This document shows, in pieces, positions 41,801 through 63,594 of a stretch of DNA of 64,000 nucleotides. The translations under genes and the position numbers were made by a program. The DNA comes from Paraspadella gotoi (taxonomy: Eukaryota > Animalia > Chaetognatha), in assembly GCA_051294375.1 (NCBI GenBank), contig CM119263.1:30257376-30321375 (forward strand), written 5' to 3'. Numbering within the stretch: the stretch's first letter is position 1; each line of letters opens with the position of its first letter. The notes beneath the pieces were generated by a model. The model searched no databases. It saw only the letters and a program-made list of their open reading frames with translations, and was not told the origin of the DNA.

Positions 41801-43264
41801 TCCAGTTTTTTTCGTTTGATGTTGAGTTCATCACTTTCCGTCTGGGCCACTTCGTAAGCTGATTATTTTTTTTTCTCAAAAAACAAAAAAAATTTAAAAA
41901 AATCAGGAATGGATAAAAATTTAAGGTATGGAAAAATTTTAATTAAAGTTTCTTTTAAAGTCAAATCATTAATTGGATCAAAGTGTAACCTCTAACATTA
42001 GTACAAGTATAAGAAGAAGGGAAGCGCTCTTTATCTCTCCTAGAATTCAATCTGTTGTGAACAAGAGTCAAAGGAAACCGGAAAGATATTTCAGGGGTCA
42101 TGAAAAATGTTTACCAAATGAAATAACATCCTTGTTCCAATTTTAAGAGGGATTTGGTTTTTTTTTCTGTACTTTCCTGTGCGTTTCTGAAAAATATAAT
42201 ACCACCATTAAAATTCCTTTATTAAAGGAGGCCCAGACGCAAGAATTCTGCTTTCTGCATTAAAAAATAAAAATTCGAAATTCATGGAAAAATGACTTCC
42301 CAAGTGAAAGTAAGAGAATGGAGGGTATCAGTATTTAGGGGAGATCAATTAAAAAATTTTCCAATAAATATCTCGTCCTTGTTCGAATTGCAACAAGGAG
42401 ATGAGAATTTTTTCTCCACTTTCCCGCGCGAAGAAAAATTAATGACTATCACCATTCGAATTCCTTTAATGATAGACCCTTAAGCTTATGATATCATTTT
42501 TATCACTGGGTCCCCTTAAGCCTTGTTTTGAATTTTTTGTTTCCAGCTCATCTACAACTCTCTTTGAAGCCCAATATTGTTTAAATTCCATCCCAAAATT
42601 CAAACTTGTTCTCGGCAATATGAAAATGAAAAGTTTATTTTTTTTTATAAATAAAAGATGGAGGATAAAAAAAAATTGACCGAGAAAAAATAATAGTAAA
42701 TCAAATGGCCAGAAGACAGAAGCCAAAAGCCAACGATTGTTTATAGATTTTGAAAGAACAATGGAGGCAAAGAGGAGGAGGAGGAAGAGGAGGAAGAGAA
42801 GAAAAAGAAGACGACGACGACGACGACGAAGAAGCCGCGAAAAAAAAGACAATATCCGACGCGACGCTTTCGAATCAACTACCCTGGCTTCCAAACATTC
42901 GGTATCTCACGGTGGCTTCGCAAAAAAAGTTTCCCTCTCTGATTCACCAAACGCCTCACCTTTCTCGAGTCTCGACTTACCCGGTTTCTTCATCATCCTG
43001 GAGACGCGAGCGATGGACATCGGCGGGCGGTTGACGCGGCTCATGTAGAGACGCTTGAGGACCACCTGAGGGGGTGATTGGTTCTCGGTTAGATTCGATT
43101 AGCGGTGATTGGTGAATTGATTGAATCACCTTGTTGAACTTGGACTCGGTCCTTCTGGCCAAGAACCGGTAGAGCTTGACGAGCAGACGGAGATAGATGT
43201 CCTTGCTTTTCGGTTCCGTCCGTCTCGACTTCCTCATGTACTTGTGACTGATGTCGACTCCCAT
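38823..43264 (-). CDS. RPL18: 60S ribosomal protein L18 (eL18), 4 coding exons with a 3.66-kb intron 2
   Basis: [78 protein letters not shown]. Confidence 0.98.
39720..40680. repeat. Degenerate (ACG/AAC/GAA)n low-complexity tract
   Basis: Direct reading; source of T/K- and F/V/S-rich spurious ORFs. Confidence 0.9.
41385..41446 (+). ncRNA. Hammerhead-ribozyme-like motif (type I, Penelope-type), stem I degenerate
   Basis: CTGATGA-A-GGCTTG cattc CAAGCC-GAAAC, with stem III ACGTTT/AAACGT followed by a GUH-type site. Confidence 0.55.
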
Positions 43265-43733
43265 TTTCGACACTTGGACTACTATCCCTCTTTACTTTAT
43301 TTTAAGTCCTCCTTTTTTAAACTTAATATTTTCTTAACAAATCTAGCAAAGGCGTTTTGAATAGGAAAAAAGAATTATCCATTATTTTTTTATAAATTAA
43401 TTATCGCTTCCAATTTTTTTTCAAAAACATAACATTTAGGGAAAAGACAACCAAAAAAATCCCCGCGGAAATCGAAAGAGAACGATTATTTTTGATGGCG
43501 ATACACCCCCCCGCTACTCCCCCCCCCCACATTCGGACTGCGACGACGAGAATCGTAACAAGAGACGCAGACGAAGATGCAAATCAAGATGACATTGGAA
43601 ATGCAGTCAAGTCTACTGCCTGGAAATGCAGTCAAGTCTACTGCCGTGAAATGCAGTCGAGGGCGAAACGAATACGATCAAGATCACTTCTCAAAAAAAA
43701 GATCAAGATCGTGAGTCCCCCTCGCGTGGAGTC

Positions 43734-44860
43734 TTATTCCGAGTCGACGTTGACAGTGTGGAGGCCTTTGAAGGAGGTCGTGGGCACGTGGGTCACGTAG
43801 GTGTAGAGTTTGTGGACGCTGTCTTCGTCCTCGTTACGTTTGCGGGCCAATCTGTGGAATAAGAGATGGTCACGATTGTAATTTGTTGTTATTGGCAAAG
43901 ATTATCGGAGGCTTTGAGAGACTGACCTGACCCTGACTCTGACCGGGACGCCCTTGACGCCTTTAGACCAGAGATGCTTGTTGAGGCGAGTGTCGATGCG
44001 AACGTCCGACGTGCCCATCTGCTTGACGGCGAATTCCCGGACAGCCTGAGAGAAAGGGGTAATAGGGGAGAGAGAGGGAAGGAAAGTGAGTCGTAATGGG
44101 GCTGAGAAAGAAAGATTTTTCTAATCCTCTGCTGCTCAGAGAATTAAAAAGAATTTTAAAGATGTCAAGAAAAATGAGTTTTAAATACAGTTCTAAAAAT
44201 ACCCTAACCACAAAAATATTAAAATAAGGCCTTTCGAGTACAAAGCAGAGAGTTTTTATTTTATAACGATATTGAAGAGACAGTAATAATTGTTGTGTTA
44301 GTGACAGAACCGTTCAATATAAGCAATTTCTGAGCTTTGGATCAGGCTGTAAGTGTAACACCGTGTTACAGGCGGGTTAATCGCCCTGTCAGTCATAACT
44401 GCTAGGCGACCACCGGGCTAGAACCCCGGACCTTTGGGTTGGGAGGCGAATGACTTGCCTCCGGCACCAATGGCCGCTGATGATTGATTGGTGGATTTTA
44501 GTCCACCATAATATATATATATGTGTACGAATTCCGAAACAACGAAAAGAAAGGAAATTACATAAAATAAAGCCATATAACTTTTTTTGATAAAAATAGA
44601 AAAATCATGCGAAACGAAGAAAGATTTAACATAAAACGCCATTGAAACAAATTATTCTACGTCTCGAAACAAATTACTTCAATATGCAAATGAGATTTTT
44701 AGGATCAAGGTGCCGTGAATCCAACCTTGATGGCCCTGGGCGCCCTCTTCTTGGAGCCGATCCCGAAGATCCTCTTGTGAAGGTGGACCGTGTACTCGCG
44801 AGTGACGACCTCGTTGATGGCGCTCTTCCGTTGTCGCTCGCTCTTCTTCGCCGCAGGCAT
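43734..44860 (-). CDS. RPL31: 60S ribosomal protein L31 (eL31), 3 coding exons
   Basis: [68 protein letters not shown]. Confidence 0.97.
44272..44510 (-). mobile_element. tRNA-derived SINE-like repeat, copy 2 (RPL31 intron)
   Basis: Reverse complement aligns along its length with 25891-26126. Confidence 0.75.
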
Positions 44861-45142
44861 TTTTAGTTTTAAAAGTTTATCCCTTAAATTTAAATCTGAA
44901 GATACGCCAAAAAAAAAATGTACCAATTTCATAAGGGGGGGAATGAGGAATCATTTCGGTAAATGGCGTTTGATGCCTAAAACGTAACAAATAATCCAAA
45001 ACGAAATAGAAAGATGGCGACACAGAGAACATTATAAAGATTTAAAGTTCATTAAAAATTTAAATTATAAAAAATGGGCAAAAATGAAAATAGCCACAAG
45101 ATGAAACGCGACATCACAATAAAACAATCACAAAAATATCAA

Positions 45143-46904
<1,762 letters not shown>

Positions 46905-47195
46905 CTTTCAATTTTAGAAAATAGTCGCTCGAATATTTTCATTCAAATTAACATTTCTTTTCGCCAAAAAAAAATGCGCTAGATTTAAATAACGAACTGA
47001 CAAATTGGGACTAGTCGAGTTTTTGAAAAAGACGAGAAAAGGAGGGAGAGAAAAGCAGAGAAAGGTTAGTAAAGTTAGCGTTCGTTGACGGCCAAGTAAT
47101 TAGCGTTAGAGATCTCGAGTCAGGCCCTCGAAGTTAACCATGTCTCAATGTTCTCTTCTATCACCATTTCTTCTTCATCCTCCTCCTCTTCCTCC

Positions 47196-50100
47196 TCACA
47201 AAAATGGCTCGATGTTGATCTCCATCGCGGAGACGGGAAGAAGAAGATCGAAGGAGGCAATTACATCCGGGTGGAGGACGCCGAGTCGACCCACGGAATT
47301 TCCGGCGACGAGAATGTCGGCGCATCGTCCGGGAAAGAAGGTTGAGTCGTCGACGGGGGAAATGGAGTAACCAGCTGGGGTTTTGTAGGGGACGTTGAGG
47401 AGCTGGGGGGTAGACGGGGGAGAATCTAGATTGTTAAAATATGTTTTTAAAAATCGATTTGGTTTATAACTTTCTTACGAAGAAATGACACAGGAATTGA
47501 CACGTTCATTTTACAGGTAACATTCATTCTTTAAAATTGAACAATTTAACAATTGTCCGACGTCTCACCTGCATGACCCTGTCCATGAGACCGTGGACGA
47601 TCTCGAATCCGGAAGTCTTGGCCATGAAGACGGCGCAGAGGCGTCGCTCGTTTTTCGCTCCGACGTCGCGACTCGCGTCTTTGACGACGATGTCCGAGAT
47701 CTCGAAGAGTTTGAGCGGAAGTGGGAGGCGACGGTTGGCGGCGAGGGTGCGGAGGATGCCGGGGAGGAGGCGGGTGCGGGCCACCTGGAAGAGGTTGAAG
47801 GGGAAAGGCAAAACGTTCAAACCTAATCTACATAACCGGTAAATTTCTGACTAATTTCAATTACTTTTAACTATAAAACTACTACACTTCAATCGAGCTG
47901 TTCCGCAGTCGTAGGAGACCTAAAACAGAAGAAAACCCGCCACAGCTTTAGCTGAAAATCTCTGGCCAAATTCAAGAGTTCCTAACTTCTTTCTCTAATC
48001 AACAAATCAGATGTCTCAAAAAAATATATTTAATTGCACTGTAAAATGAAAATGAGCTCGATTTCGATCCGAAATGTTTAATGACCTGAAAGTCTTGCGT
48101 CTTGGGATTCCCGATGTGCACGGCACCAGATGTCTCTAATGGTTGCCGCAATTTAGCGGATACGTCATCCCTAAAACACGATGTCGTGCAATAAACAGTA
48201 CAGGATCATCATTATTTAGAAAAATAATCATTAATCACCCACACTTGAGCCGACCTGCTACAGAGCGCGAAGGTGAGCACTTCGCAAAATCCCGAGGCGG
48301 CGATCTCGTGCCTCAACGCGTCCGTCAACTTGTTGAGCGGGAACTGTGCTGCAATTGTGTTGGTATTGGGAATCGTCTTGACGATGTTGTTGTAGCCGAA
48401 GGCGATGGCGACGTCTTCGGCGACGTCGATGGGGTGAATCACGTCCGCGCGGGTGGGCGGCACGAGGACGTCGAGGATCGGGGATCTGGGAACAAATAAA
48501 AGAGAGACAAATAACATTAACAATAACGCGGACAACTCCTCCAACCGACTTACCCCTGATCATCAACCACATCCGTCTTCAAGCACATCCGGGTCAAGAG
48601 ATTCGCCATTCGATCCGCGTCTAAATCGATCCCTATTCGTTTGTTGATGTACGATGGTGAGATTCGCTCGTGGCGGTAGGGAAGAGCTGTGGAAAGTGGA
48701 CAATGGAAAGGTGAAAAGGACATCGTTAATAATAATATACGAAAAGAGCGATAGACGAATTTCAACAATGACTAACAACGACGAGCAAAATAAGAACATT
48801 TACGAACTCCCAACTCCCACCCCATTCACCGGGAAACTCGGTGGTGTTCCCGTCGGCGCCGACGACGACTCCAGGTTCGACGGTGAACTTTCGATCGCAA
48901 TATTCGGAGAACATGGAGACGATAATGTCAAGGACGATCTTGGCTTTGGTCAGATCCGTCGCCGTGCACTCGATGAACACGTTGCGAGTGCCCAAGTGGA
49001 TTCTGGCCAAAGGGAGGCAAGGGGCGGAATTAGATCGGGGGGAAAGAGATGGGAAACGGGGGAAAGGAAAGGGAGGGAGAGAATAAGTGGAAGAGGGAAA
49101 GAACTGACTTGGAATGATTTCCGTTGATGATGGGAGGCATCGAGAGGACGACGCGGTTGGCGTCGTAGATGATGGGGTAGACTGGGGAGTCGCGAATGAT
49201 GGGGAGAAACTGGCGGAGATGGAGATCAGTCGAGTAGAGGCTCATCAACTCCGTCTAGAGGGAAAGTGGAATTTGATGACGTACTTAAGTTTTCATTTTA
49301 GGAAAATTAAGTCAAAGTTTACTAAAGAAAAGTTCAAATAGCTAGTTCAAAGTAAGGGGCAAGACAGCACATTTCTTGAATGAATGGATATTTTTCATAT
49401 TGGTTGTAGCCCGAAATAAAAGGTACAAGAACTAATAAAAGGAGAAAAACTTAAGACAATATTCATGGAAACAATTACAATTACGGCAATGTGCAAATGA
49501 GAAGAAAGCAAACTTACAGCTGTGTATTCCTTGTCCTTATTGAGAGGACAGAATTTGATTTGGTCGGGCGGTCGGGCCTCGTAGGAGAATGGCCCGACGA
49601 GCGTGTCCAAATCGTGAGTCCCGATCGCCACGAGTGATCTTTATGAGAAGGAGAAACTTAGCGGTCACAAAACTCCAGTTAAAGCAGAGTCAATACTCCA
49701 CGTACCGTTTCCTGCAGATGTTCTGATGCAGCTTCTCCTGCAGTTCGATGAAGCTATCGTATCTCTCCTTGGTGAAAGTGACGCCTCTCAGCGTCGCGCA
49801 GACGACGAAGGGACGAATCTGCTTCGTCGAAGGATCGACCTTCATCGTCTGAGAAGATGGAGTAGATACTTTTTCGTAGACCGGGATCGAGGCTTTGTTC
49901 TGAAGACCGGATAGGGTAGTAAAAATTATTATCAATTCAATTACTTGTTTAATCATTAAAACTAACTCACCATGAAGATCAGCAAAGCCCTGACGAGCCC
50001 TTCGAGACACAAAAGGTCGTATCGATTGGCGGGGATATCGATCTTGAAGACGGTTCGTTCCTCGCCCGACTCTTCATTCTTCTCGACGACGACGTCGTCC

Positions 50101-50204
50101 AACTCGAGACCGAAATCGAAGCACAACTGATCAAATTCTTTGTCCGTGAAGCGTCGCCCGAGGGCGTCGAAGAGCCGCTCGCGGCCCAAGGAGATCGTCG
50201 GCAT
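47196..50204 (-). CDS. FARSB: Phenylalanine-tRNA ligase beta subunit, 10 exons
   Basis: MPTI..., [71 protein letters not shown], ends EINIEPFL*. Confidence 0.97.
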
Positions 50205-50326
50205 CGCGACGAAAATCGAAAGAGTTTGGCGAGTCGGAAAGAGGAATGACTAAAGTTCTCGTTCCACGGAACCGGCTGAGTAACCCGCGTTTATCAATCT
50301 TATGAAGCAAAGGTACAAACAAAATT

Positions 50327-50554
50327 TTATTGAGATTAAAGACGAAGTCTTTTTACATAAACGATTAATTTTTATTATTTAACAGACATGTTTCGGCTTT
50401 AATGTAAGTCGCCTCACCTTCATCAGCGCTTTGACAATTTCACATTTTTGGGTGAAATTGTCAAAGCGCTGATGAAAGCTTGCATTAAAGCCGAAACATG
50501 TCTGTTAAATAATAAAAATCTATCGTAAAAAGACTTCGCCTTTAATTTCAATAA
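50327..50554. repeat. ~228-bp near-perfect palindrome carrying a hammerhead-like motif on each strand
   Basis: Arms of ~110 bp around the loop ATTTTTGG; plus strand CTGATGA(50469)...GAAACATGTC(50502), minus strand CTGATGA(50426)...GAAACATGTC(50385). Confidence 0.85.
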
Positions 50555-50816
50555 TACCTAAAGACAACGAAAAGAAAGAATATTCGCGAACAAAATCTTG
50601 AAAAAAGAATCGAATTAATTGGCTTTAATTCAAGCGAAGCAATAAATCTATTATCGCCCTATCATTGATTACTGGACTAAAACAATCCGAATAATAAAAA
50701 CAAATACGAAATACATAGAAATATTCTAAGAAAAAATAACAATAACATTTTAATCATAGAAAACAAAACCAAAAAAATATCACGAAGGTAAATATCACAA
50801 TTGCAGGATAATAATG

Positions 50817-53800
50817 TCAGGTCAAGTCTCCCGTGCTGGCGTACAACTGAGCGAGGACCCGGCTGATGACTGGCCCCAACTTCCGACCCAGGACGCCACA
50901 CTTAATGTCCTTCAAGAGATTCTCGCGACTCTCTGCTGTCGGGAGGGCGTCGTAGGCGCGCATGAGGAGTTCCGGCGTAGGGTAAGTCTGGAGAAAGTGG
51001 ACGGACAGTTGGAAAGTATTTTAATTAATTGATTTCTCCCTGACTCTATCCTATCTCTATCTCCTATCTCTATCCTATTCATTGCGTTGATTCACAGATT
51101 CCTCTTACCTGGACGATAGCATAAGCTTTTACGCCCGAGATTCCCGACAGAACCATGAGCTGCTTGGCGAAGAGCTCCTTCGCTGAAATGGCGCCGTTTT
51201 TCTGGCAAGCTCGTTGAAACTCGGCGAAGGCGACGCCGTCGAGGATAGGCGCGTCCAGAGAGAAGGCGTCGTCGTGACTGTTGTCTTTGTCGCGCGAGAT
51301 GGCGCGCAGAGTTTTGGAGGCGTAGACGCTACTGAGGTAACGCGTCATGAGGGAGAGATAAGCGGCGACGTCTTTGGGGTCACGACAGTGGACTACGTGG
51401 AAACCGTCGATGATTTGCGTGTTGGAGATGGCCTGGAATAAGGGAGGGCGGAGGGCCGTTTAATCTAATTTGCATATTACAGTGATTAAACCATTAAAAG
51501 AAATAGTTTTATATCAATTTTTTTTTACTTATTTTTGTCCAATTCAATTTGGATCCTCATTACATTTTCATATTTAAATCATAAACTCGCGCATTGAAAG
51601 ATTAAAATAAAAAGATCCAGAAAACTATTAAAACTAATTCGAGTCAATCGTATTATATGAATATTGCGAAGTCTTAATTCTATTTTTAACTGTAAATGTA
51701 ATATAACCTCGAGTCGTTTATTTCTGGTATATTTTCGTTAAACGATAATAATAAAAACATTTAGAATAATCAAAATAAAGTTTTCTTTAATGTTCGTTTG
51801 GCGATCCAAGTCAAGAGCGTTTCTAAAAAAATACTTTCATAGTAGAAACAGACGCTCGACTTTGTTGTCATAAAAAATCATAAAATATTTTTTTACAGAT
51901 AACACTCGAGGATATATATATATATATTATGAAAATTTGCAAATTACTTGTTTGCACTATATTTCATTTTCATATTTTATGAAGATTTAGTATTTAATCT
52001 ATACTATTTAAACAAATATATATTGCTTTCTTTTTTAAAAATGTTTTATTTATCTATATATTCAATTTGGGAAGGGAAAGTCAGTGTTGTCTTCTGGAAA
52101 TAGAGGGATCATCTATACAAACAAAAGGTTAGATTACTATCTGTCCTAGTTTTCTAATAGATATCACACATCATTTTTGTTAGAAAGTCATTAATGAAAA
52201 ATCATAATATCTAAAAGGCTGAACAGAAAGGGGTATGAATGGATAATTTTTTTAGGGGGGCCAACGTTATATATGATTTTTTTTACAAATAGGGATAAGA
52301 CTACTATGTAGAATTGTATGTTTGATAGGGATACATACTGGGGGAAAGGTCTATAGGGGCACCTTTATGTTATGAATATAATTTTAAAATGCTTTAATTA
52401 TTTATTTTTTGAATATTTTTTATTTTTTATGTTTATACAATGGGAAGGTCATCAGTTGGGAACCTATACCCTTCATGGATTTCGGCTCTTTAATCCCAAT
52501 ATCCAGGTATAGGCGAGCCATCACCAAATGGTGATCCTTATATATATATATTATATATTTTGACTAATAACTCTGCCCAATTCCCAACCTGTCTCAAGCT
52601 AGCGACGGGCAGCGACCCTGGCTTTCGTCTGAACTCCTCGATGAGATAGATGATCCTCTTGAGACCCGACGCCCTCAGGCGGTGCTTCTGTTCGCGGAAT
52701 CGCCCGTCGACGATGGAGGAGGAGAGGTCGTCCATTCGTTTTCGTTCGATGATGAAGTCGAGGACGATTTCGCGGGGATTGACTGGTGAAGAGGTGATGG
52801 TGATGGGGGAAGGGGGTAGAGGATGGTTGATGGGGAAGGGGGGGTTAGGAGATATGGAAGGGTGATGTGGGAAGCGTGATGTGGGAAGGAGGATTGGTGA
52901 AGAGGTTAAGGGGGATGGGCGATGGGGCAAAGGATTAAGAGGGAATTAACCAACGAACACTTGATCTTTATCCTTTATGGCTCATTCGTCTCTCCCAGTT
53001 TTTTAAATTTTCACCCAATTATGTTACTACACCTTACATTCACAACCCCAAAGAAATTACATATCAACTCATTCAATGAATTAACTATCTGGCCCCTAGG
53101 ATATTGTTAGAGGTCGGTTAGAGGTCGGTTCAGGTCTCCAGCCCTCTTATAAGATGAAAATATAGCAAGGAAGTTTCCAATAAAGTAATAGATTAGTAAT
53201 AGATCCGCACTAACATCAAGATTAAAGAGTAAACTTACTCGATCTTCCTCGTTCCCTCGCGATCCAGAGGAAATCCCCGACGGCCAAACGTCTCGTCTCG
53301 TAGACGACGCCGTTGCGAGACAAATCCGAAGAACAGGCAACCTTAAAGTTAAAACAAGTTAAAACTTGAGTCCCTTCCAGGCTCCTTTTAATTCTCCTTC
53401 TCTCACCCCACCCCACCCATCCCACCTCCCCCGTGTCTACGAGAAGCACGAGATCGAATTCGCCGGAACGAAGAACGAATTGCGGCGCCGGACCGGATGT
53501 AGGCGTGTCTCTCGTACGCATTTCGGCCACCGCGTCATCGACGCTTCTACAAAAGAAATTTAAATAATAAAGCATTTTCTATTGCAGGATAAAATTAGGA
53601 TTTAATCTTGGTTTACATGCGACGAGAGGTTCCTTTAATATTCGCCGAGGCCTGAGGCGAAACCGTCTCTGGAGCCGGCGTCGTACACGTCATTGATTTG
53701 GGATTTTTCTCAATTACCACGTTGATGGTCGACCCAGGAGTCGAATCCGACGTATCGTTAAGATTCTTTTTTCCCGGTTTGGCTTTTTTCCTCATAGTCT

Positions 53801-56194
53801 TCATCTTCATAACCTCCGACAGAATTTCTCCATCGTCATCCATCAAGCCACCCACCCTTCCTCCTCTCGCCATCTCTGGACAATCTTCGTCCTTCAAAAA
53901 GGCGACGACGAATTCCCCGCCTTCTCCGCTCCGCCCTCTATGTTCTTCCTCGACGAACCACTTCCCGCTCCATTTCAAATCTTTTCTTCGACTCTTGACG
54001 AGAAACGTGACTCCGACGTCGGCGTCGAATCCAACCACAGCTGAGTCTTTGGAGAGGACGTCGTTTCCCGCCGCGTCCACGTAGACGAATGATAAGGGGG
54101 CGTGGCTGCTGTTGTCGCTCACTTGGTCATTCGTACTCGAGGTAGGAAAAGGGTCAATAGATTGGTCGAAACCTTCCATGCTTATCCCATTTTTCTCGCT
54201 CCGACTTTCGACTTTGTTACAAACGACGACATCGTCTTCTTCGTCGCTGGAAATTTCGATGGAGATGTCGTGAAATTGGTTTTTCTTTTTCACCGATGAG
54301 ATTTCAGGATTCGGGATTCGAGCGATGGACGAATACAACTTCGCTAACCCTTTGATGTTGTTGTTATCGTCGTCAACGTTCTCTACAGCAGCCCTCCCGC
54401 CGCCTACTAAGTCCTCGTCGGCCGCCTTCAGCCGCGCGGCCAACTCTCTTCCCGCCAGCGTCAGGCTGTATTGAGCCGGGCTGCTCCTCTTTACCACCAA
54501 CTCCTTGGTCAAGAGTGTCGACATGGAAGACCAGGCCGAGTAGAACGAGTCCACGTCGTCGGGTTTGAAAAAGGAGGCGTCACAAAGAGGCTGCGCCAAT
54601 TTCATCAGGCGCCGTTTGGAGAGATGAAATGGTTTCGTCGGCGGCGCTGGCGCGTCGGAGTTTTCGGCGCTGCAAGTGCGATGGTAAAGCGCCAGCAGCA
54701 GTGCGTAGGCGCCGCCGCGGCGCGAGGGAACGTAATCGCGAGAAGCTGAGGTGGGTCGCCGACGCGGCTTTTTGCCGGGCGGCGACCCTGGATCGGGAAT
54801 TGACAGCGTGGGAGGCGAGATCTGCGGCGCTGACGGGGCGTTCGAAGGGCTTAACGGGGCCGTTCGTTTTCTTCCTGTGGCGCAGCTTAGAACTGGTGCC
54901 GATGGGTTCGGGTCGGCGTTCTCCGCCAGCCAAGATCGGTGCTCCTGGAGTCGTTCGTCAAGCATCTTACAAGTCTTGGGTCCGAAGTTCTCGAGTATGG
55001 CGCAGGACTGACCGCAGGCAAGGACTGCCGGGTATTTCTTGAGGGATTTTATGGCCTTTAAAGGAGAAGCGATGGAATGAGGGAAAAAAACATAAGGGAG
55101 AGACAGAGAGATTAGAAAATATCCCCATTGACCTTATTGATTTGTCGTTCTCGAAGACGAGTGTCCAAAACACAAGTACCAAACAGTTTCTACAAACAGA
55201 AACATTGGGTTGCAGGTTTTCATTTTGATATACCCCTTCAGTGCACACAACATATCCAATAAATCGCGATTGCTGCCGGCTTAATAGAAGGGGCTTAAGA
55301 TAGGACCTCAAGTTAGATCGAGCATAAAACTTACCTTTAAATGATGTAAGGGAGATATGGGGTGAACAAAATCGGGAGGCGAAGGGTAAAAGAAAAAACA
55401 TAAAATGAAATGTTAAATTAAATAATAAACATTAAACATATAAACATTTAAAACTTAATTCATCCTGTCCAAAACAAAAGTACCAAATAGTTTCTACAAA
55501 AAGAAACTTTGGGTTGCAGGTTTTCATTTTGATATACCCCTTCAGTGCACACAACAAATGCAATAAATAGCGATTGCTGCCGGCTTAATAGAAGGGGCTT
55601 AAAATAGGACTTCAAGTTAGATTGAGCATAAAACTTACCTTTAAATGATGTAAGGGGGATGATATGGGATAAACAAAATCGGGAGGCGAAGGGTAAAAGA
55701 AAAAAAAGAAAAATGAAATGTTAAATTACATAGTAAACATTCCATTAAGCATATTTAAACATTTAAAATTCAATTCATCCTGTCCAAAACAAAAGTACCA
55801 AATAGTTTCTACAAGAAGAAACCTTGGGTTGCAAGTTTCCATTTTAATATACCCCTTCAGTGCACACAGCGAAGGCAGGGAAAAGCGATCGCTGCCGGCT
55901 TAATAGAAGGGGCTAGCCAATAAAAGCCACAATGACGATTATCACTCAGATACACCAACCCCAAAATCAGTTACTCATTTTTACCTTGGTATAAACAAAG
56001 ACCAAGTTCTTGTTGTCCTTGGCCCTGGCTTCTTCCTGCCATTCCTTCAACCATTGAAGGAAGAGAGGATTAGGGTGAGGGAGAATTTTCTTTTTTCTCT
56101 TCCCCTTAAGGGCGACGGGGTCATAAGTAGGAACGGGATTCCATTCTCCCGATCCCCTTTTCTTTTTCTTCTTTTTCCCACGTTTTTCATCCAT
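50817..56194 (-). CDS. MUS81: Crossover junction endonuclease MUS81, 7 exons
   Basis: N-terminal PNPLFLQWLKEW..KAIKSLKKYP HhH, winged helix YVPSRRGGAYALLLAL..YSAWSSMSTL, ERCC4 nuclease GDFLW and ERKRMDDL..DGRFREQKHRL, C-terminal HhH. Confidence 0.95.
55159..55295 (-). ncRNA. H/ACA snoRNA copy C in MUS81 intron 1
   Basis: Hairpin CCCCUUC..GA(A)GGGG, H box AUAUCA, second hairpin, ACA box; 3' pocket complementary to 18S GAGUA-psiG-GUUGCA. Confidence 0.75.
55330..55345 (-). other. Putative recursive splice site (AG|GTAAGT, junction 55335/55334)
   Basis: Pyrimidine-rich tract with no other AG for ~118 nt, ending TTTAAAG and followed immediately by GTAAGT. Confidence 0.65.
55463..55599 (-). ncRNA. 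H/ACA snoRNA copy B in MUS81 intron 1
   Basis: Same architecture; H box AUAUCA; ACA 14 nt after the 3' pocket strand. Confidence 0.78.
55633..55650 (-). other. Putative recursive splice site (AG|GTAAGT, junction 55639/55638)
   Basis: No other AG for ~140 nt upstream; TTTAAAG directly abuts GTAAGT. Confidence 0.65.
55778..55914 (-). ncRNA. H/ACA snoRNA copy A in MUS81 intron 1 (predicted guide for the 18S site equivalent to human psi1174, SNORA40-like target)
   Basis: H box AUAUUA; pocket strands UUGCAAC and UACUU pair with 18S GGAGUA-UG-GUUGCAA; 14 nt to ACA; compensatory change CAGCGA/UCGCUG versus CAGCAA/UUGUUG in copy B. Confidence 0.8.
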
Positions 56195-56546
56195 GAGCTT
56201 TGGGAATTTAGTTATTGTCAATTTATTTTGATTTTAATTGTATTTTAATTTTTATGTTGTTCGAAATGTCTCATTACGAAAATCAAATTCAGATTGAGTT
56301 GGTTTTTTGACTTTTTCGGTCCCTTTAACCGACAACCCATCACATCGTGGGTAAGTCAGAGGAACCAAACAAATCAGGGGCACCCTCGCCGCCCGATCGT
56401 TTCAACTGTACGGAAACAAAAGATTGAAGCTTTTGTCAACTATTTTAATTACGAAACGGAAACAAAAACATCTAGAATTGTAAATTTTTTTTTTAACTGA
56501 AAATTTATCAATACGGAAACTATCTCTGGAGTAAGAAAACTAATGT

Positions 56547-57138
<592 letters not shown>

Positions 57139-57455
57139 GATGAATGTTGTTGTTGTTAACTTTAGGATATGGAAGTCCTCGATGACAGAAATCGCAAACT
57201 CACTTTTAATTCAGACTCTGGAAAAAAAAGTAAAATATAAAAGCAAATGGCAATTTGTATAAAATATATATCATTTTGAGGTAGAGAAGACGGTTCAGAA
57301 AAACTATTCAAAAATATAAAGGTGTAAAAAATGAATATATCACGAGGAAAAGGTTGCCTCTGACTCTGGACGAGGGAAAGACTGTTTGAAAATTGCTGAA
57401 GGATTTGTCAACTTAAACGAACAAAGAATTTAGACCAAATTCATTGGGGAAAGAA

Positions 57456-58181
57456 TCAAAGTTCAGAGTTTTCCACCGCGACCGAAATATCTTTAGGCGG
57501 CGATGTGGCGCTGGCTGCGGAGCACGTAGCGGCGCACGCTGCGCTCTCAAGCCGCGCTTCTCGGAGGATACGGTGCATTTGCGCCGCGTCGACGCTGGAC
57601 ACGGCGGTGCCGGAGGCGGACCCGGGCGCAGTCCCGGAGGTAACAGAAGTGCCGGATTCGGCGACGCTGAAAACGTCGCTGGAGCCGAGATCGGAAGGGG
57701 CGCCGGAAGGGGCGCCGGTAGCTGCGCAAGAGGCGGAAGAGAAGGCGGAGGCCAAGGAAGTGAGCGACGCCGCAGGAGTCAGGGTCATTGAGGTGGAGAC
57801 CGCGCTGTAAAAAGAAAGTGGGGTAAATTAATAGATAATATAATAATATTAAGAAATAATATTTTAACAATAAAAGTTAAAATAAATTAGCCTAATTTAT
57901 TCAAAATCTTTTGAATGTTTCTTACTTGGATTCCTCAGTCGTTGGATGATAACTAGAATTGAATAGAGAATCCTTTTCAATGTTATCCTCGACGATCACT
58001 CTCGGATTCTCCACGCTACGATCGCTTCCACCGCTTCCGCCAGTAGAGACCACCACTGCATCGCTTCCGTCGTCTCCAGGCGGACGCGGTGTTGGCGGAC
58101 AGGCGGGATGCGAGGAGGCAACGGAGGGAAGGGTGGGATGAAAACGTCGTATGTCGAGTCCCTTAAGAAGAAATATATTCT

Positions 58182-58279
<98 letters not shown>

Positions 58280-61200
58280 GTAAACAAATAAACATCCGCG
58301 TCGCGACGGCCATTCGTTCCCGTCGATCTCCCTGTCGATCTTCCCGCCGCCGAGTTTTTCGTCCAGATTGTCCGCGCTCGAGGAATGCGCGGGAGGGCGC
58401 GCGGGGACAGGAGCGAAGCGTCGGCGAAAGCGGGGGCGATCCATTGGCGCACGTGGGGCGGAGGAACGACGAGGAAATTGGAGGAAGGACGGCGAGGCGG
58501 AGACTGGAAAAGGAAAGGTGAGGAATTTTAGCGAAACATTTTAATCACATTTGCATATTGCAGTATTTCTTTGGATCGACTATAAAAATCGAAAAGTAAT
58601 GTACAGAAGAATGAATAAGACTAACACGAGTTTCTTCGTAAAGGCTAAGGCTAAGGCGTTGCCAAAGCAAATGTGAAACATACGTATAAAACCGCTAACG
58701 TTCAAGATTGCGATTCACGACCCGCCCCCCTTCAGCTCGCTCCAAAGAGATCTTACCCGCTTCTGTTCGTCGTCTGCTTGACCGAAGTAAGTGACCGTCC
58801 TGACCTTCTTCCTCTCCACGCAGCTGCAGACGCAGGATCGATCAGCGACGACGACTTTCTTCCTTCGTCGATGAACCGATTCCTCGATCTTCCTCTTCCT
58901 CTTCATACCCGTTGCACCGTCGTCCTCCTCGCAGTCTTGAGGCCCCATCCAAAAGAGAAGAACGGGGAGGAAGGCGAGGCCGTGCCAGAGGCCGACGATA
59001 ACCATGGAAACGATGAGCTTGGAAAATGCCTGGGGAAACGGGTGGAAAACGCGTCTTAAATATAGAAAAAAGGAGCGATAATTTCAATTTCACTGTATTT
59101 ACTTTTTCAAAAAAAAAAGTTTAATTAGTTGTTTTCTTTTTCAAATGTTTTAATTTTAAAATAATCATCTGACCTCACAAATTTAAAATGTTTCACGCGA
59201 AGATTAAACGTGACATTGAGAAATAAAGTGACTGCAACACTTGAGTAACAAATCTTTCAGCGCTAAAATAATTTTAGCTAAAATAATTGCGCTATTCTCA
59301 TAACCTAATAAAAACGTAGGAGACTGAATACGTAATTGATAAGAGCATGACGCAGTGACGCACCGTAAAAGCATAAGCGTTGGAGACGACGAGTGGCGCC
59401 ATTGCGATGACGGTGGAGACGCCTCCGTGAATGACGGCTGGGCCGATGGAACCGAGGGAGGCGGCGACGCGGGCCGCGCGAGTCCCCGACGAAGCGATGA
59501 ACGAGTGGCCCAGGTGGACGGAAAAGTCGATGCCTAAAAGATAGCGAGAATCTCATTTGCATAAAAATATAGTCTAGGTTAACGAGGTCGAAAAAGGAAA
59601 TCAAAATTTTCGCTTAAAACTTGATTTTAAATTACAAAGAATTATGAAAATAAAAACGCTACTCTTAAAAGTACAAAATTTACGGAGATAAAAAAAAAAC
59701 TTGACAAAAAACGCACCTAAGCCGATGAGAATGACCATAGTCATAGCAGTGACCGGCTCCAGTGTGAGGCCGAAGAAGTGGAGCAGACCGAAGACGTCGA
59801 GGAGCGAGAGAAAGACGGCGAAGGAGCAGAGGAATCCCATGCGAGCGTCGGCGAAGAAGAGGAAGATGACGAATCCGATGAGGACGAGGGAAATGCAGAG
59901 GTTGCGGCCCAAATCCCAGGGCAGGAAACGAGCCTTAAGCGAATATATCAATATTAATTCAATTATCGCAATAATTAATATCATAACTGTTCACAATGAT
60001 ACAGTTGGTTTAACGTCTTACCTGTTCGAGCGAAATAAAGAGCTGGGAAAAGATAAATACGGTGTCCTTGGCGAGACCAATCTGGTTGTAGACGAGATTG
60101 TGGAGCGAATCCAAGAAGCCCATGTTCTCCGAAGTCTTGAAGTGAAACTTGTAAGTGTAGGTGAACTTGCAAGCTTTGAGAGGATGATAGACGAAGCCGG
60201 TGGCGTTATCAACGTGGGTCACGTTTTCGTTGAAATAGAGATCCTGAGAGAGAGAGAGGGGGGGATTCATCGTTAATCGATGGTCATCCTCCAATCGAGG
60301 ACGCCCTCTAACCCAACCTACCCCACCTTCTCCGCCGTCCCCATGACGGAGCTGTTGATAAAGTGTTGAAGCCAAAAGTAATATGACGCCCGCGTCGAGG
60401 GTTTCGCTGTCATGTTGTCCAAAGGAAATCGGCGCAAGTCCTCCGGATTGAGTTCGGGCGCGAGGCGGAGGTACATCTCGAATCCGCGGACCCAGTCTTG
60501 GCTCAAACTAAGCTCCTTTTGGGCGCTGAGAGAGGCCAGAACCTGGGAAACAAAGAACCAGTGCAATAAGCAACAAAGCAGACGGACAATATTCTTGCAA
60601 CTCTCACCTTCTTAATGACGCCGGTCGATCGATGAAAGTCCAAATCCCTGAAGATGAGCTGCATCGGAGTCCGCATGAGGCTTGGGAAGAATTCCTTGGC
60701 GATCGTCTTGAACTGGTGGAGGAATGAGTCCATGGGGATCAAGCTCCACACGTCCCACTGGATCTGCGTTTTGATCAGACCTGAAGATCAAAGTTTGATT
60801 TATTAAGCGTGCGAACCGAGCCTCTACTCGATCGACCGGCCCTAGACACGACTTCGCACCGTAAAAGCAAACGCCGAGGATGCCAATGGTGACGCCGACG
60901 ACGACGACTTGTACGTACGCGTTGGCGACGAGAGGAACGTAATACTTTTTGAAGTAGACGCTGAACTTGTCCGGGTGACGCGGACGGCAGCAGAGCGGTG
61001 GCGGGGGAGTAGAGTCCGTCGCCGCCCCCAGCGCCTCTGCCGAGCGACGAGAAAGTTTCTGGCGGGTCCTGAGAATTATGGATCACGGGGCTTATTATCA
61101 GTATCGTTAATGAAAGCAATGTCAATGTCTCTATGAATAAAACTCACCTCATCCTCTCGATGAGTGAGAGACAAGCGATGAAGAAAGTGTTCATGAGGGC

Positions 61201-63594
61201 GAAGATGAAAGATATGCCGACAGCGAGCCAGACGCACATGGAAGACGTGGCTGGCATGATGAAGGTGGTGCCGACTGCGAAGGCAAGGGCGTCGGAGAGG
61301 GACGTCACGAAGATGGAGAGACCTGGTGGAAACGAAAGGTGAAGTGATATTGTCTAATGTCTCGTCCTGTAAACCAAGGGAGAAATCCGACCGACCTACG
61401 TCGTGAAGGATTCGCGACAGAGAGTCGACGACGACGGTTTTGACTCTGATTTCCGAAGTCGCGTTGTTCACGGATTCCATTTCTTCTCCGGTTCCATCCG
61501 ACGTCGTCAGCGGATTTATCGTCGTTGTGATCGTCGTTCGACTCTTTTCTTTATATCGATCCCGTTTGTATTCGATTGCTCTTTTGTTTTTCAAAGCCTG
61601 ATATAATAAAATAATTCCGTTTTTAACTCATTGATAGTTTTTGTATTATTAACATCGACGACAGCAACATCGAGAACAATTTAAACTCGCGCGCAACGTG
61701 CGCGATCGAAGCTTGAGGAGAAAGGGGATGGCTGAAGGGAGTAGGAGGAAGAGGAGCTTGCTAATAATTCTAATACTAATAACAGTAAACAGTGAAAGTT
61801 TAACCTGCGTCACAACGAACATGTCGTCGATCCCAATGCCGAGTAAAATAGCGGGAATAATTAGATGAACGTTGGACCAGAAATAACCCATGAGAGAACA
61901 AAATCCGACCATGAGGGAAACAGCCAGGCCTTCAAGTGAAAACCGGTCAGGATTTGGACAAAGTAAGATAAACTAAAATGCGTGAAAAGCGGTCAGTCTA
62001 CGAAAAACGTAGAAACAGTCAAAACGTATCAAGCATACTTGCGATTGTACTTCTATGACTCACCGACTGTGAGGAGACCAGACAGCGATACCAAGACACC
62101 CGTCATCAACCGCCCATCGTAGCTCATCTGCGAGAATTTGAATACAAGCGGTTGAGCGTCAACAGAATAAAGCAGAGGCTAAAATTGCGCCAAAAGCTCA
62201 CCTGAGTGATCATGTAGAGGAAAACGAAGGAGTAACCGTAGAGGACGTACTTTAACTCTCGCTCCATGATCGACTTGGACTCTGTATCGAAGCTGCGGCC
62301 ACCGCTGTCGAGGAAAGGATTAAAGAGGGGGGGGGGTAATAGACCCCGTTAATAATAACGAGAGTTACAACAGTTGAATTTTATTAATCAACCTGTAAAC
62401 GAGATTGTCGAACTCCGGTTTCATTTCCCGAGCCACTTTGTAAAAGTTTTCTTCAAAATCTCCGTACCAAAGGGCGTAGCGATGTGCATGCATGTTCCAA
62501 TGAAGGAGTACGGCTTTGGCTCCTGAAGAAAGGCGAGGAATGACTTGCGCTCCGTCTCTCTCTCTTTCTCTCGCTCACACACACACACAACCTGCGATCG
62601 AGTCGTTGTTGTTCGATTGCCAGAAATTGCTGATGGTGGCAACAATGTAATGTTTGTCGACTCTGGTGCGAAGATCTCGCAACGACTTGGCGAGATCAGC
62701 CTAGGGAGGGAGAGAGAGTTTTAATCCTGAGATAAAAAGAGATGGCGTTTGATTTTATCTTCTTCACCTCCGTCATATTCATGATCTTCTTCTCGTCGTA
62801 ATCCCAGAGACGAAGGACGCTAAAGTTGGCGCAAGACTGAAGGGGAAAGCAAAAAAATGTATAAAATAAACCATTTCTATAAAGCCTATGTACATCGTAT
62901 AATTAAAATATAAATTCTCTCACCTGAAACTCCTCCATACGAATGCACCTGTCTTCATAGTCGCTCCGGTGACTCACGATTCGATGGTGCATCCTAAAAT
63001 CAATCAACAAATTCTCGGATGAAAAGCGAAGAGCAAAATTCAAGCTGAAATGAGAGATCACGAGTTTTCAAACAAACCGGTAGAGATTTTTTATGACGTC
63101 CGGCCTTAACACGTTTTCGCCGGAAACGATGACGGATTGAATGAAACCGTTGGGCACCGGAGATTCTGAGGAAGTGTTTTGCGGGAAATATTTGTCGAGC
63201 CAAAGTTTGTTTTTGTGCAGCGAAGACTCTTTAGGCAGCCTTGGGGATATAATGATGCGAATTAGGTTGATGCCATTTTGTCTTTAACTCTTTAACTTCT
63301 TACCAAAGGTTATAGGGGTCTCTCTCGTCGTTCATCCAGAGGACGCCGAGCATAGAGACGAAGACGATGGCGAAAGTCAAGTAGATCGTCGTCATCGGGT
63401 TCGTCGAGACGACGTGACCAACGCGGAAGAAAAAGTTGGAGAGGAAGGCGAACATTTCAGAGTTGAAATACTAGAAAAGGAATTGGAAAGAAATGAGTAA
63501 GGAATTTGTTAAGGGTAAGTTAATGACAAAAAAAACTTACCCTCGCGCATTTTCCGCTCTTTTTCGTCTCATTTTTCGAGCTTCGTCGCTTCAT
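57456..63594 (-). CDS. Patched-domain (PTCHD3/NPC1-like, sterol-sensing RND) multipass membrane protein with a long low-complexity C-tail
   Basis: N-terminal TM then LWLPKES, SSD motif LLGIGIDDMFV, TSLSDALAFAVG, second TM set with IGLGIDFSVHL, GLWHGLAFLPVLL. Exons 58503-58279, 58161-57926 and 57804-57456 splice in frame from the donor at ~58757. Confidence 0.85.

Follow-up and report, generated by a model that had tools for sequence, protein, structure and literature searches.

Introns that abut one another with no exon between them have been described in fungi, and these are the closest described counterparts of the element considered here, intron 1 of the MUS81 gene on the minus strand of a 64,000-nucleotide (nt) stretch of the chaetognath Paraspadella gotoi (assembly GCA_051294375.1, contig CM119263.1, positions 30,257,376 to 30,321,375), which is called the window throughout. 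For the 'complex introns' without exons of Luo et al. (2013, PMC3596301) at least 61 cases of exon loss and a cluster of the form intron-intron-intron are described, and 42 fungal spliced products fit either stepwise splicing in the 5'-to-3' direction or alternative choice of acceptor (PMC3596301). Clusters in the Candida clade are spliced recursively with an exon size of zero (Donovan et al. 2016, PMC5033589), and in S. pombe SPNCRNA.445, the host of snoRNA61, spliceosome profiling places an exon of zero length within an intron of 336 nt (10.1101/226894). The first-pass annotation of the window knew of no description of such an arrangement for introns shorter than a kilobase (kb), and the claim that there is none is overturned by the fungal clusters (PMC3596301, PMC5033589) and the S. 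pombe intron (10.1101/226894). In Drosophila, zero-nucleotide ratchet points lie in introns of 11-133 kb and delimit segments of at least 2,596 bp (Duff et al., 10.1101/006163).

The biogenesis of an intronic small nucleolar RNA (snoRNA) involves debranching and exonucleolytic trimming, and two snoRNAs in one lariat give rise to a long non-coding RNA with snoRNA ends (sno-lncRNA; PMC11028025). How, then, might an intron with three snoRNAs release each of them singly? MUS81 intron 1 is probably three abutting short introns that are removed stepwise, with one snoRNA in each lariat, where the use of the internal splice sites is something that we infer from their sequence.

Architecture of MUS81 intron 1

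The region reads on the minus strand as exon 1, intron 1 and exon 2 of an animal MUS81. Re-reading it bore out what had been placed in the 929-nt intron by the first-pass annotation, namely three H/ACA copies and two AG/GTAAGT sites (the slash marks the cut), and the exon joint in a contig of the sequencing run X1 agrees. The intron and its predicted subdivisions are as follows.

55056..55984, minus strand: MUS81 intron 1, 929 nt, GTAAAA...CTTTAAAG, with its joint in an RNA contig
55639..55984, minus strand: unit A, a predicted intron of 346 nt with the real donor, copy 1 and an internal acceptor, putatively spliced separately
55335..55638, minus strand: unit B, a predicted intron of 304 nt with an internal donor, copy 2 and an internal acceptor, putatively spliced separately
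55056..55334, minus strand: unit C, a predicted intron of 279 nt with an internal donor, copy 3 and the real acceptor, putatively spliced separately
55633..55645, minus strand: zero-length-exon site 1, TTTAAAG/GTAAGT, cut 55639/55638, donor score 10.84, acceptor score 8.73
55329..55341, minus strand: zero-length-exon site 2, TTTAAAG/GTAAGT, cut 55335/55334, donor score 10.84, acceptor score 6.92
55641..55779, minus strand: AG-free pyrimidine-rich zone of 139 nt before site 1, candidate branch A at -32 (55670) or -83 by motif guess
55337..55453, minus strand: AG-free pyrimidine-rich zone of 117 nt before site 2, candidate branch A at -29 (55363) or -79 by motif guess

At both internal sites, cut at 55639/55638 and 55335/55334, the AG of a 3' splice site directly abuts the GT of a 5' splice site, and these are the sole GTRAG motifs in the intron. 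Each is preceded by TTTAAAG, as at the real acceptor, and the long AG-free tracts reported earlier are there too, with zones measured at 139 nt for site 1 and 117 nt for site 2, next to 75 nt for the real acceptor. The window has 29 occurrences of AG/GTRAG, counting both strands, and the AG-free zones of these two are the longest, the next being 46 nt. Site 62202 and similar AG/GTRAG occurrences were discarded as recursive candidates because they read as exon ends. One internal site falls in each interval between snoRNAs, in every case after an AG-free tract, and each unit has its own donor, branch-like motif, pyrimidine tract, acceptor AG and intact snoRNA; in unit C the candidate branch motifs, again guesses, stand at -57, -38 and -23. 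The earlier description of three units of about 300 nt is right in giving one copy to each, but their lengths are 346, 304 and 279 nt, and what is actually repeated is the snoRNA together with its spacer, present as 2.4 copies of 304 nt from 55162 to 55914.

The transcript check made use of the assembled contigs of four runs, and only X1, whose contigs pass over six stretches bounded by GT-AG and which is presumed to be RNA, covers MUS81. In one X1 contig, at a depth of 193, position 55984 is followed directly by 55054, and the stretch passed over is exactly 929 nt long and has GT..AG ends; four letters of this joint fit either side because both junctions read AAG/G. A single intronic X1 contig (55653-55910, depth 2.9) lies over copy 1 and its trailer and stops 14 nt short of site 1. 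The uncovered 55171-55650 and the ends of the intronic contig are given no weight, as contigs cannot show ends or absence. The runs X2, X3 and X5 contain RPS12 pieces and short partial matches, which offer no evidence on MUS81.

A probable stepwise route out of the transcript

In the proposed mechanism the spliceosome would pair each donor with its nearest acceptor, such that each unit is predicted to release a lariat with a single snoRNA. The earlier statement that splicing to an internal AG regenerates AAG/GTAAGT holds by sequence. Since exon 1 and all of the units end in AAG and the internal donors read GTAAGT, every splicing step re-forms the site for the one after it, and any order therefore gives the same mRNA. 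The lariats would be debranched and trimmed to single snoRNAs in the manner of ordinary intronic snoRNAs (PMC11028025) and, given that two snoRNAs in one lariat lead to a sno-lncRNA, separate lariats would free three single snoRNAs. The mRNA would be unchanged whilst the snoRNA output per transcript would go up. With respect to the recursive release of three lariats put forward by the first-pass annotation, each unit is indeed a complete intron on paper, and use of the sites keeps the standing of a prediction. The stepwise splicing of the same layout in fungi counts, by analogy, for stepwise removal here.

Strength of the internal sites

The splice sites were scored with a weight matrix built from 49 window introns, five of them RNA-confirmed and 44 predicted by script and picked by eye. 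Gene prediction had returned 97 minus-strand and 98 plus-strand introns, the latter all being dropped as shadows, and the 44 were kept from the minus strand; the median length of the reference introns, 88 nt, is biased short with long introns mostly dropped. Against this reference the internal donors score 10.84, the top value among the 54 GTs in the intron and above 33 of the 49 reference donors, while the real exon 1 donor scores 5.83. With scores of 8.73 and 6.92 the internal acceptors exceed 25 and 18 of the 49 reference acceptors respectively; they come second and sixth among the scored AGs and are mid-range for real acceptors. Internal donors and acceptors alike thus have a strength similar to the organism's real sites, where 44 of the 49 references are themselves predicted. 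Acceptors that end in AAG are in use in the window, where they close five of the 49 reference introns, one of these RNA-confirmed, in addition to MUS81 intron 1 itself.

Chance formation of such a site was gauged by shuffling. When one spacer was shuffled 20,000 times with its dinucleotides preserved, the string AGGTAAGT appeared 7 times, and once together with a long AG-free pyrimidine context; for the looser AGGTR the figures are 5.4% and 0.6%. None of the nine AG/GT decoys inside the 49 other introns is followed through to GTAAGT and none has an AG-free zone longer than 56 nt, the zone of the decoy at 44432 being 20 nt. At ordinary acceptors AG-free zones reach 184 nt.

The snoRNA copies and their predicted 18S target

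The three snoRNAs are listed below.

55778..55914, minus strand: H/ACA snoRNA copy 1, with an H1/SNORA70-type 5' hairpin and an 18S-complementary 3' pocket, covered by X1 contig 55653-55910, fold z -3.4
55463..55599, minus strand: H/ACA snoRNA copy 2, an apparent mosaic, 5' like copy 3 and 3' like copy 1, fold z -2.8
55159..55295, minus strand: H/ACA snoRNA copy 3, with boxes and an 18S-pairing pocket, fold z -1.7

Each copy is 137 nt long and has the hairpin-hinge-hairpin-tail order of the class, with an H box (ANANNA) and an ACA followed by 3 nt. The three fit a common two-hairpin structure in which 96.7% of cells are paired, and in the minimum-energy fold of copy 1 the 3' half is arranged otherwise. 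Covariation among the three copies is not above that of shuffles (169 of 500 were as high) and was rejected as proof of structure. Differences between copies 1 and 3 are found in the hairpin apices and the tail; they affect 11 of the 22 positions of the 5' hairpin apex and none of the 42 positions of that hairpin's stem, pocket and 3' strand. By this anatomy the snoRNA is genuine, and its expression as a small RNA is predicted.

The best Rfam match among the copies, that of copy 1, is to snoR639/H1 (RF00291; E=0.077, 20.7 bits), which is under the gathering score of 42. In E-value scans SNORA70 (RF00156) does not match the window copies and no further convincing snoRNA appears; at the gathering score Rfam finds nothing in the 64-kb window. 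A metagenome scan with a strict snoRNA pattern gave 0 loci and a looser pattern gave 13, of which seven have H1 and/or SNORA70 matches with E<=0.5 and none reaches the gathering score. Five of the 13 (L001, L005, L007, L009 and L013) are chance-like, and around the remaining eight, from -300 to +400 nt, there is no AG/GT with an AG-free zone longer than 37 nt. The pocket strands of the 5' hairpin and the H box are invariant across the three window copies and eight metagenome sequences. The window 3' hairpin does not align with its H1/SNORA70 relatives, whose GUGUGU-type pocket is absent from the window copies. One of the metagenome loci, L011:233-2452, carries a snoRNA-like series, with snR60/Z15 above the gathering score and SNORD15, H1-like and SNORA13-like matches below it, apparently in introns of one host gene.

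Possible targets were sought with the reverse complement of the window pockets as a pattern, the pockets and the gap having been chosen when 18S was already suspected. The pattern matched 21 genome contigs, and 12 of the 20 that were scanned are eukaryotic small-subunit ribosomal RNA (L030 was left out as it shares its contig with L027); viral contigs gave 0 matches to the 18S motif. In all three copies the 3' pocket brackets a single U of 18S, 14 nt from the ACA, with 6-7 bp to one flank of it and 5 Watson-Crick bp to the opposite flank, the 18S sequences being from other eukaryotes, and 0 of 2,000 shuffled guides match the same 3,073-nt 18S stretch. The 3' hairpin thus has the bipartite pocket pairing around a target U at 14-16 nt from the box. 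With the 5' hairpin canonical pairing is found on one side only, where the 5' strand forms 9 bp and the 3' strand matches a distant 18S segment; this invariant 3' strand pairs at 7 of 7 positions with 18S 1641-1647 (L028 numbering), far from the match of the 5' strand. The U that the 3' pocket pairs around lies 58 nt before the U that adjoins the 5' pocket match; in human numbering the two would be 1174 and 1232. The 18S genes of L016, L017, L019-L021, L023, L026-L028 and L032-L034 are eukaryotic and stand in prokaryotic genome records, where contamination is likely.

From its sequence the snoRNA is likely to be half-shuffled, with an H1/SNORA70-type 5' hairpin joined to a 3' hairpin complementary to another 18S site (window 55778-55914; L003, L004, L006, L008, L011, L012). 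Shuffling of snoRNA halves has been proposed (PMC6984369), and H1 itself is the single intronic snoRNA of its intron in mfl, with 18S U1820 as target, in a cluster that has one snoRNA per intron (PMC1821038).

Origin of the repeats

A tandem duplication of the whole intron, which the first-pass annotation had invoked for both internal sites, is not supported by the flanks or by copy 2. The first leader and the last trailer have no significant likeness to the spacer (p 0.06-0.75), which leaves homology between outer flanks and spacer unsupported. In copy 2, 17 of 21 informative sites fit a single switch from copy 3 to copy 1 in the 5' to 3' direction (permutation p=0.02, modest). Copy 2 looks like a mosaic made by unequal crossover, and a mosaic of this kind points to an ancestor with two copies. 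The two internal sites go back to one event because they are copies of each other. The old state would have been two introns with two snoRNAs and a single AG/GT junction, after which unequal crossover between both snoRNAs would have copied snoRNA, spacer and junction together. The first junction may have arisen by intron duplication at the AAG/G repeat of both real junctions or by exon loss, and the data fit both.

The consensus donor and full acceptor persist at a junction that has stayed intact though the outer flanks have diverged beyond detection, and this suggests selection. It can be put forward, tentatively, that the locus is a case of H/ACA amplification in an animal coding gene, in which complete introns of about 300 nt were stacked with zero-length exons, seeded at the AAG/G repeat and expanded by unequal crossover.

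Alternative explanations

A number of observations weigh against stepwise removal. The four contig sets contain neither a joint that links exon 1 with 55638 or 55334 nor any sign of a lariat, a weak negative given that X1 alone covers MUS81 and that contigs lose rare forms. The 49 other introns hold nine AG/GT in 3,142 internal positions, one of which (44432) scores about equally, so matrix scores alone leave chance possible; moreover, 44 of the 49 reference introns are our own predictions. The two sites are copies of one another and count once. Spacer identity at the site is unconvincing (8-mer p=0.42; a 33-nt run, p=0.019 uncorrected, with another run of 34 nt elsewhere), and no orthologous intron of a relative was found in the metagenome scans with snoRNA patterns. 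With regard to precedent, the intronic H/ACA clusters of Drosophila (PMC3089462) indicate by analogy that animals may free several H/ACA RNAs in other ways, and Luo et al. could not tell stepwise splicing from the selection of different acceptors by a single donor (PMC3596301).

The sole joint seen, exon 1 to exon 2, is what would be expected if the intron left mainly in one step, with a sno-lncRNA or endonuclease-freed copies as its products and the AG/GT sites as duplication relics; sno-lncRNAs, including the H/ACA-ended SLERT, do come from two snoRNAs per intron (PMC11028025), and intronic H/ACA clusters are known in Drosophila (PMC3089462). That joint is predicted by both models, however, and a relic should have decayed like the unalignable flanks, but the donor matches the consensus and exceeds the real donor in strength. 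The spacer is also unstructured, without a stable hairpin for an endonuclease (fold z +1.22), which leaves a hairpin cleavage signal there unsupported, and a one-step exit is considered unlikely. Rated as unlikely, too, is non-serial use, in which any of the three acceptors may be chosen by the exon 1 donor, or splicing starts from an internal donor and the part upstream is retained, such that stop-containing isoforms are degraded and lariats hold from one to three snoRNAs. Luo et al. leave such acceptor choice open for the fungal complex introns (PMC3596301), and read-through into the intron meets a stop at codon 6; the products would nevertheless re-create a strong donor or acceptor and could be spliced again, whereby the scheme collapses into recursive splicing, and the X1 mRNA contig spans removal of the whole intron.

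The GTAAGT donors might instead close poison exons of 141 and 130 nt, opening at the ACAG of copies 1 and 2 (55780 and 55465), in which case the exons would not be of zero length. These ACAG sites score 5.81, above 13 of the 49 reference acceptors, and the 141-nt exon has an in-frame stop while the 130-nt exon shifts the frame. Such splicing would, though, cut off the ACA+3 tail and place the branch point within the snoRNA, it would leave the AG-free tract of 117-139 nt up to the donor unexplained, and the supposed exon is intron-like with indels between copies, all of which makes poison exons improbable. Finally, an assembly artefact behind the triplication is hardly credible. Only copy 1 and its trailer are covered by an independent contig, but the copies differ pairwise at 10-22 of 137 positions (7-16%) and the spacers at 13 of 167 with 4 gaps, whereas X1 departs from the window at a single position, which lies in exon 2, and allelic duplication cannot yield such divergence. 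Stepwise removal of three abutting introns is retained as the probable reading.

Host gene and neighbourhood

The exons on either side of the intron are as follows.

55985..56194, minus strand: MUS81 coding exon 1, ATG at 56194, 3' end ...ACCAAG, phase 0, from sequence and X1 contig
53617..55055, minus strand: MUS81 exon 2, with HHH_8 and MUS81-like winged-helix domains (Pfam), invertebrate MUS81 homologues and X1 contig

The stretch 56191-55985 translates free of stops, the X1 contig over exon 1 runs 56467-55984, and an ERCC4 domain lies in a later MUS81 exon (Pfam). All seven named relatives among nine MUS81 matches are invertebrates, and an exon of the neighbouring RPS12 has 90% identity to vertebrate proteins; judged by its encoded proteins, the source organism is an animal.

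MUS81 belongs to a tight same-strand cluster (window 43000-57900, minus strand) in the order RPS12 - MUS81 - PheRS beta - KRR1 - RPL31 (Pfam), together with a further gene that is presumably ribosomal-protein-like. The X1 MUS81 contig starts at 56467, 28 nt past the end of the RPS12 contig at 56495, and an RPS12 contig extends upstream over another intron. The cluster is possibly operon-like, although a contig that spans genes does not show a single transcript. Spliced RPS12 contigs of Paraspadella gotoi, exact over window 56495-57217, occur at low depth in X2, X3 and X5, which are labelled as other organisms. A 680-nt intron of RPL31 contains, at window ~44480-44290 on the minus strand, a GC-richer insert with a tRNA-like head, by eye resembling a short interspersed element, in which the decoy AG/GT with the highest score, that at 44432, is located. 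Further along, window 58720-63590 on the minus strand holds a many-intron membrane-protein gene, patched-like by eye, one exon of which was scanned and gave no Pfam match.

Comparison with known systems

If the internal sites are used, a mechanism described for snoRNA hosts in fungi extends to a protein-coding gene of an animal, the dosage of a snoRNA rises with the mRNA untouched, and recursive splicing, which in animals is known from long introns, keeps the rule of one snoRNA per lariat in short ones. Other animal introns annotated with several snoRNAs, for instance the Drosophila clusters (PMC3089462), may then hide AG/GT sites as well. With its copy-specific variants the 929-nt intron also offers a small minigene in which to study spliceosome behaviour at an acceptor and a donor that overlap.

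The ratchet points of Drosophila resemble the MUS81 sites in being animal AG/GT sites that re-create a donor, and most of their branch points lie at -21 to -36, to be compared with the candidates at -32 and -29 (10.1101/006163). The MUS81 segments of 279-346 nt are about eight times shorter than the shortest recursive segment reported in Drosophila, 2.6 kb, and hold one snoRNA each, whereas the accessible account of the ratchet points makes no link to snoRNAs (10.1101/006163). The introns behind sno-lncRNAs and SLERT likewise contain more than one snoRNA, where the product is joined (PMC11028025); in MUS81 such joining would be prevented by internal splicing. With respect to the snoRNA itself, snoR639/H1 (RF00291) and SNORA70 (RF00156) have the 5' hairpin in common with the window copies and differ in the 3' hairpin and the 18S site. 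No animal zero-length exon between snoRNA introns was found in the literature searched, outside which most of the subscription literature lies, so that this is not proof of absence.

In SPNCRNA.445, as in MUS81, a snoRNA intron shorter than a kilobase contains a 3' splice site that adjoins a 5' splice site, but SPNCRNA.445 is a yeast non-coding host with one such site, conserved across Schizosaccharomyces (10.1101/226894). The fungal clusters I-III are like MUS81 intron 1 in that snoRNA introns abut without exons and hold one snoRNA each (PMC3596301, PMC5033589). They differ in that their hosts are non-coding, their snoRNAs are others, with the intronic ones mostly C/D, and exon loss is their origin, and use of the sites has been shown there (PMC3596301, PMC5033589). 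MUS81 offers an animal protein-coding host with three H/ACA paralogues, in which at least the second site arose by duplication and use of the sites is predicted. MUS81 intron 1 most likely works as clusters I-III do without being a member of them, and the novelty may lie not in a new mechanism but in its occurrence in an animal, in H/ACA paralogues carried by a coding gene, and in an origin by duplication.

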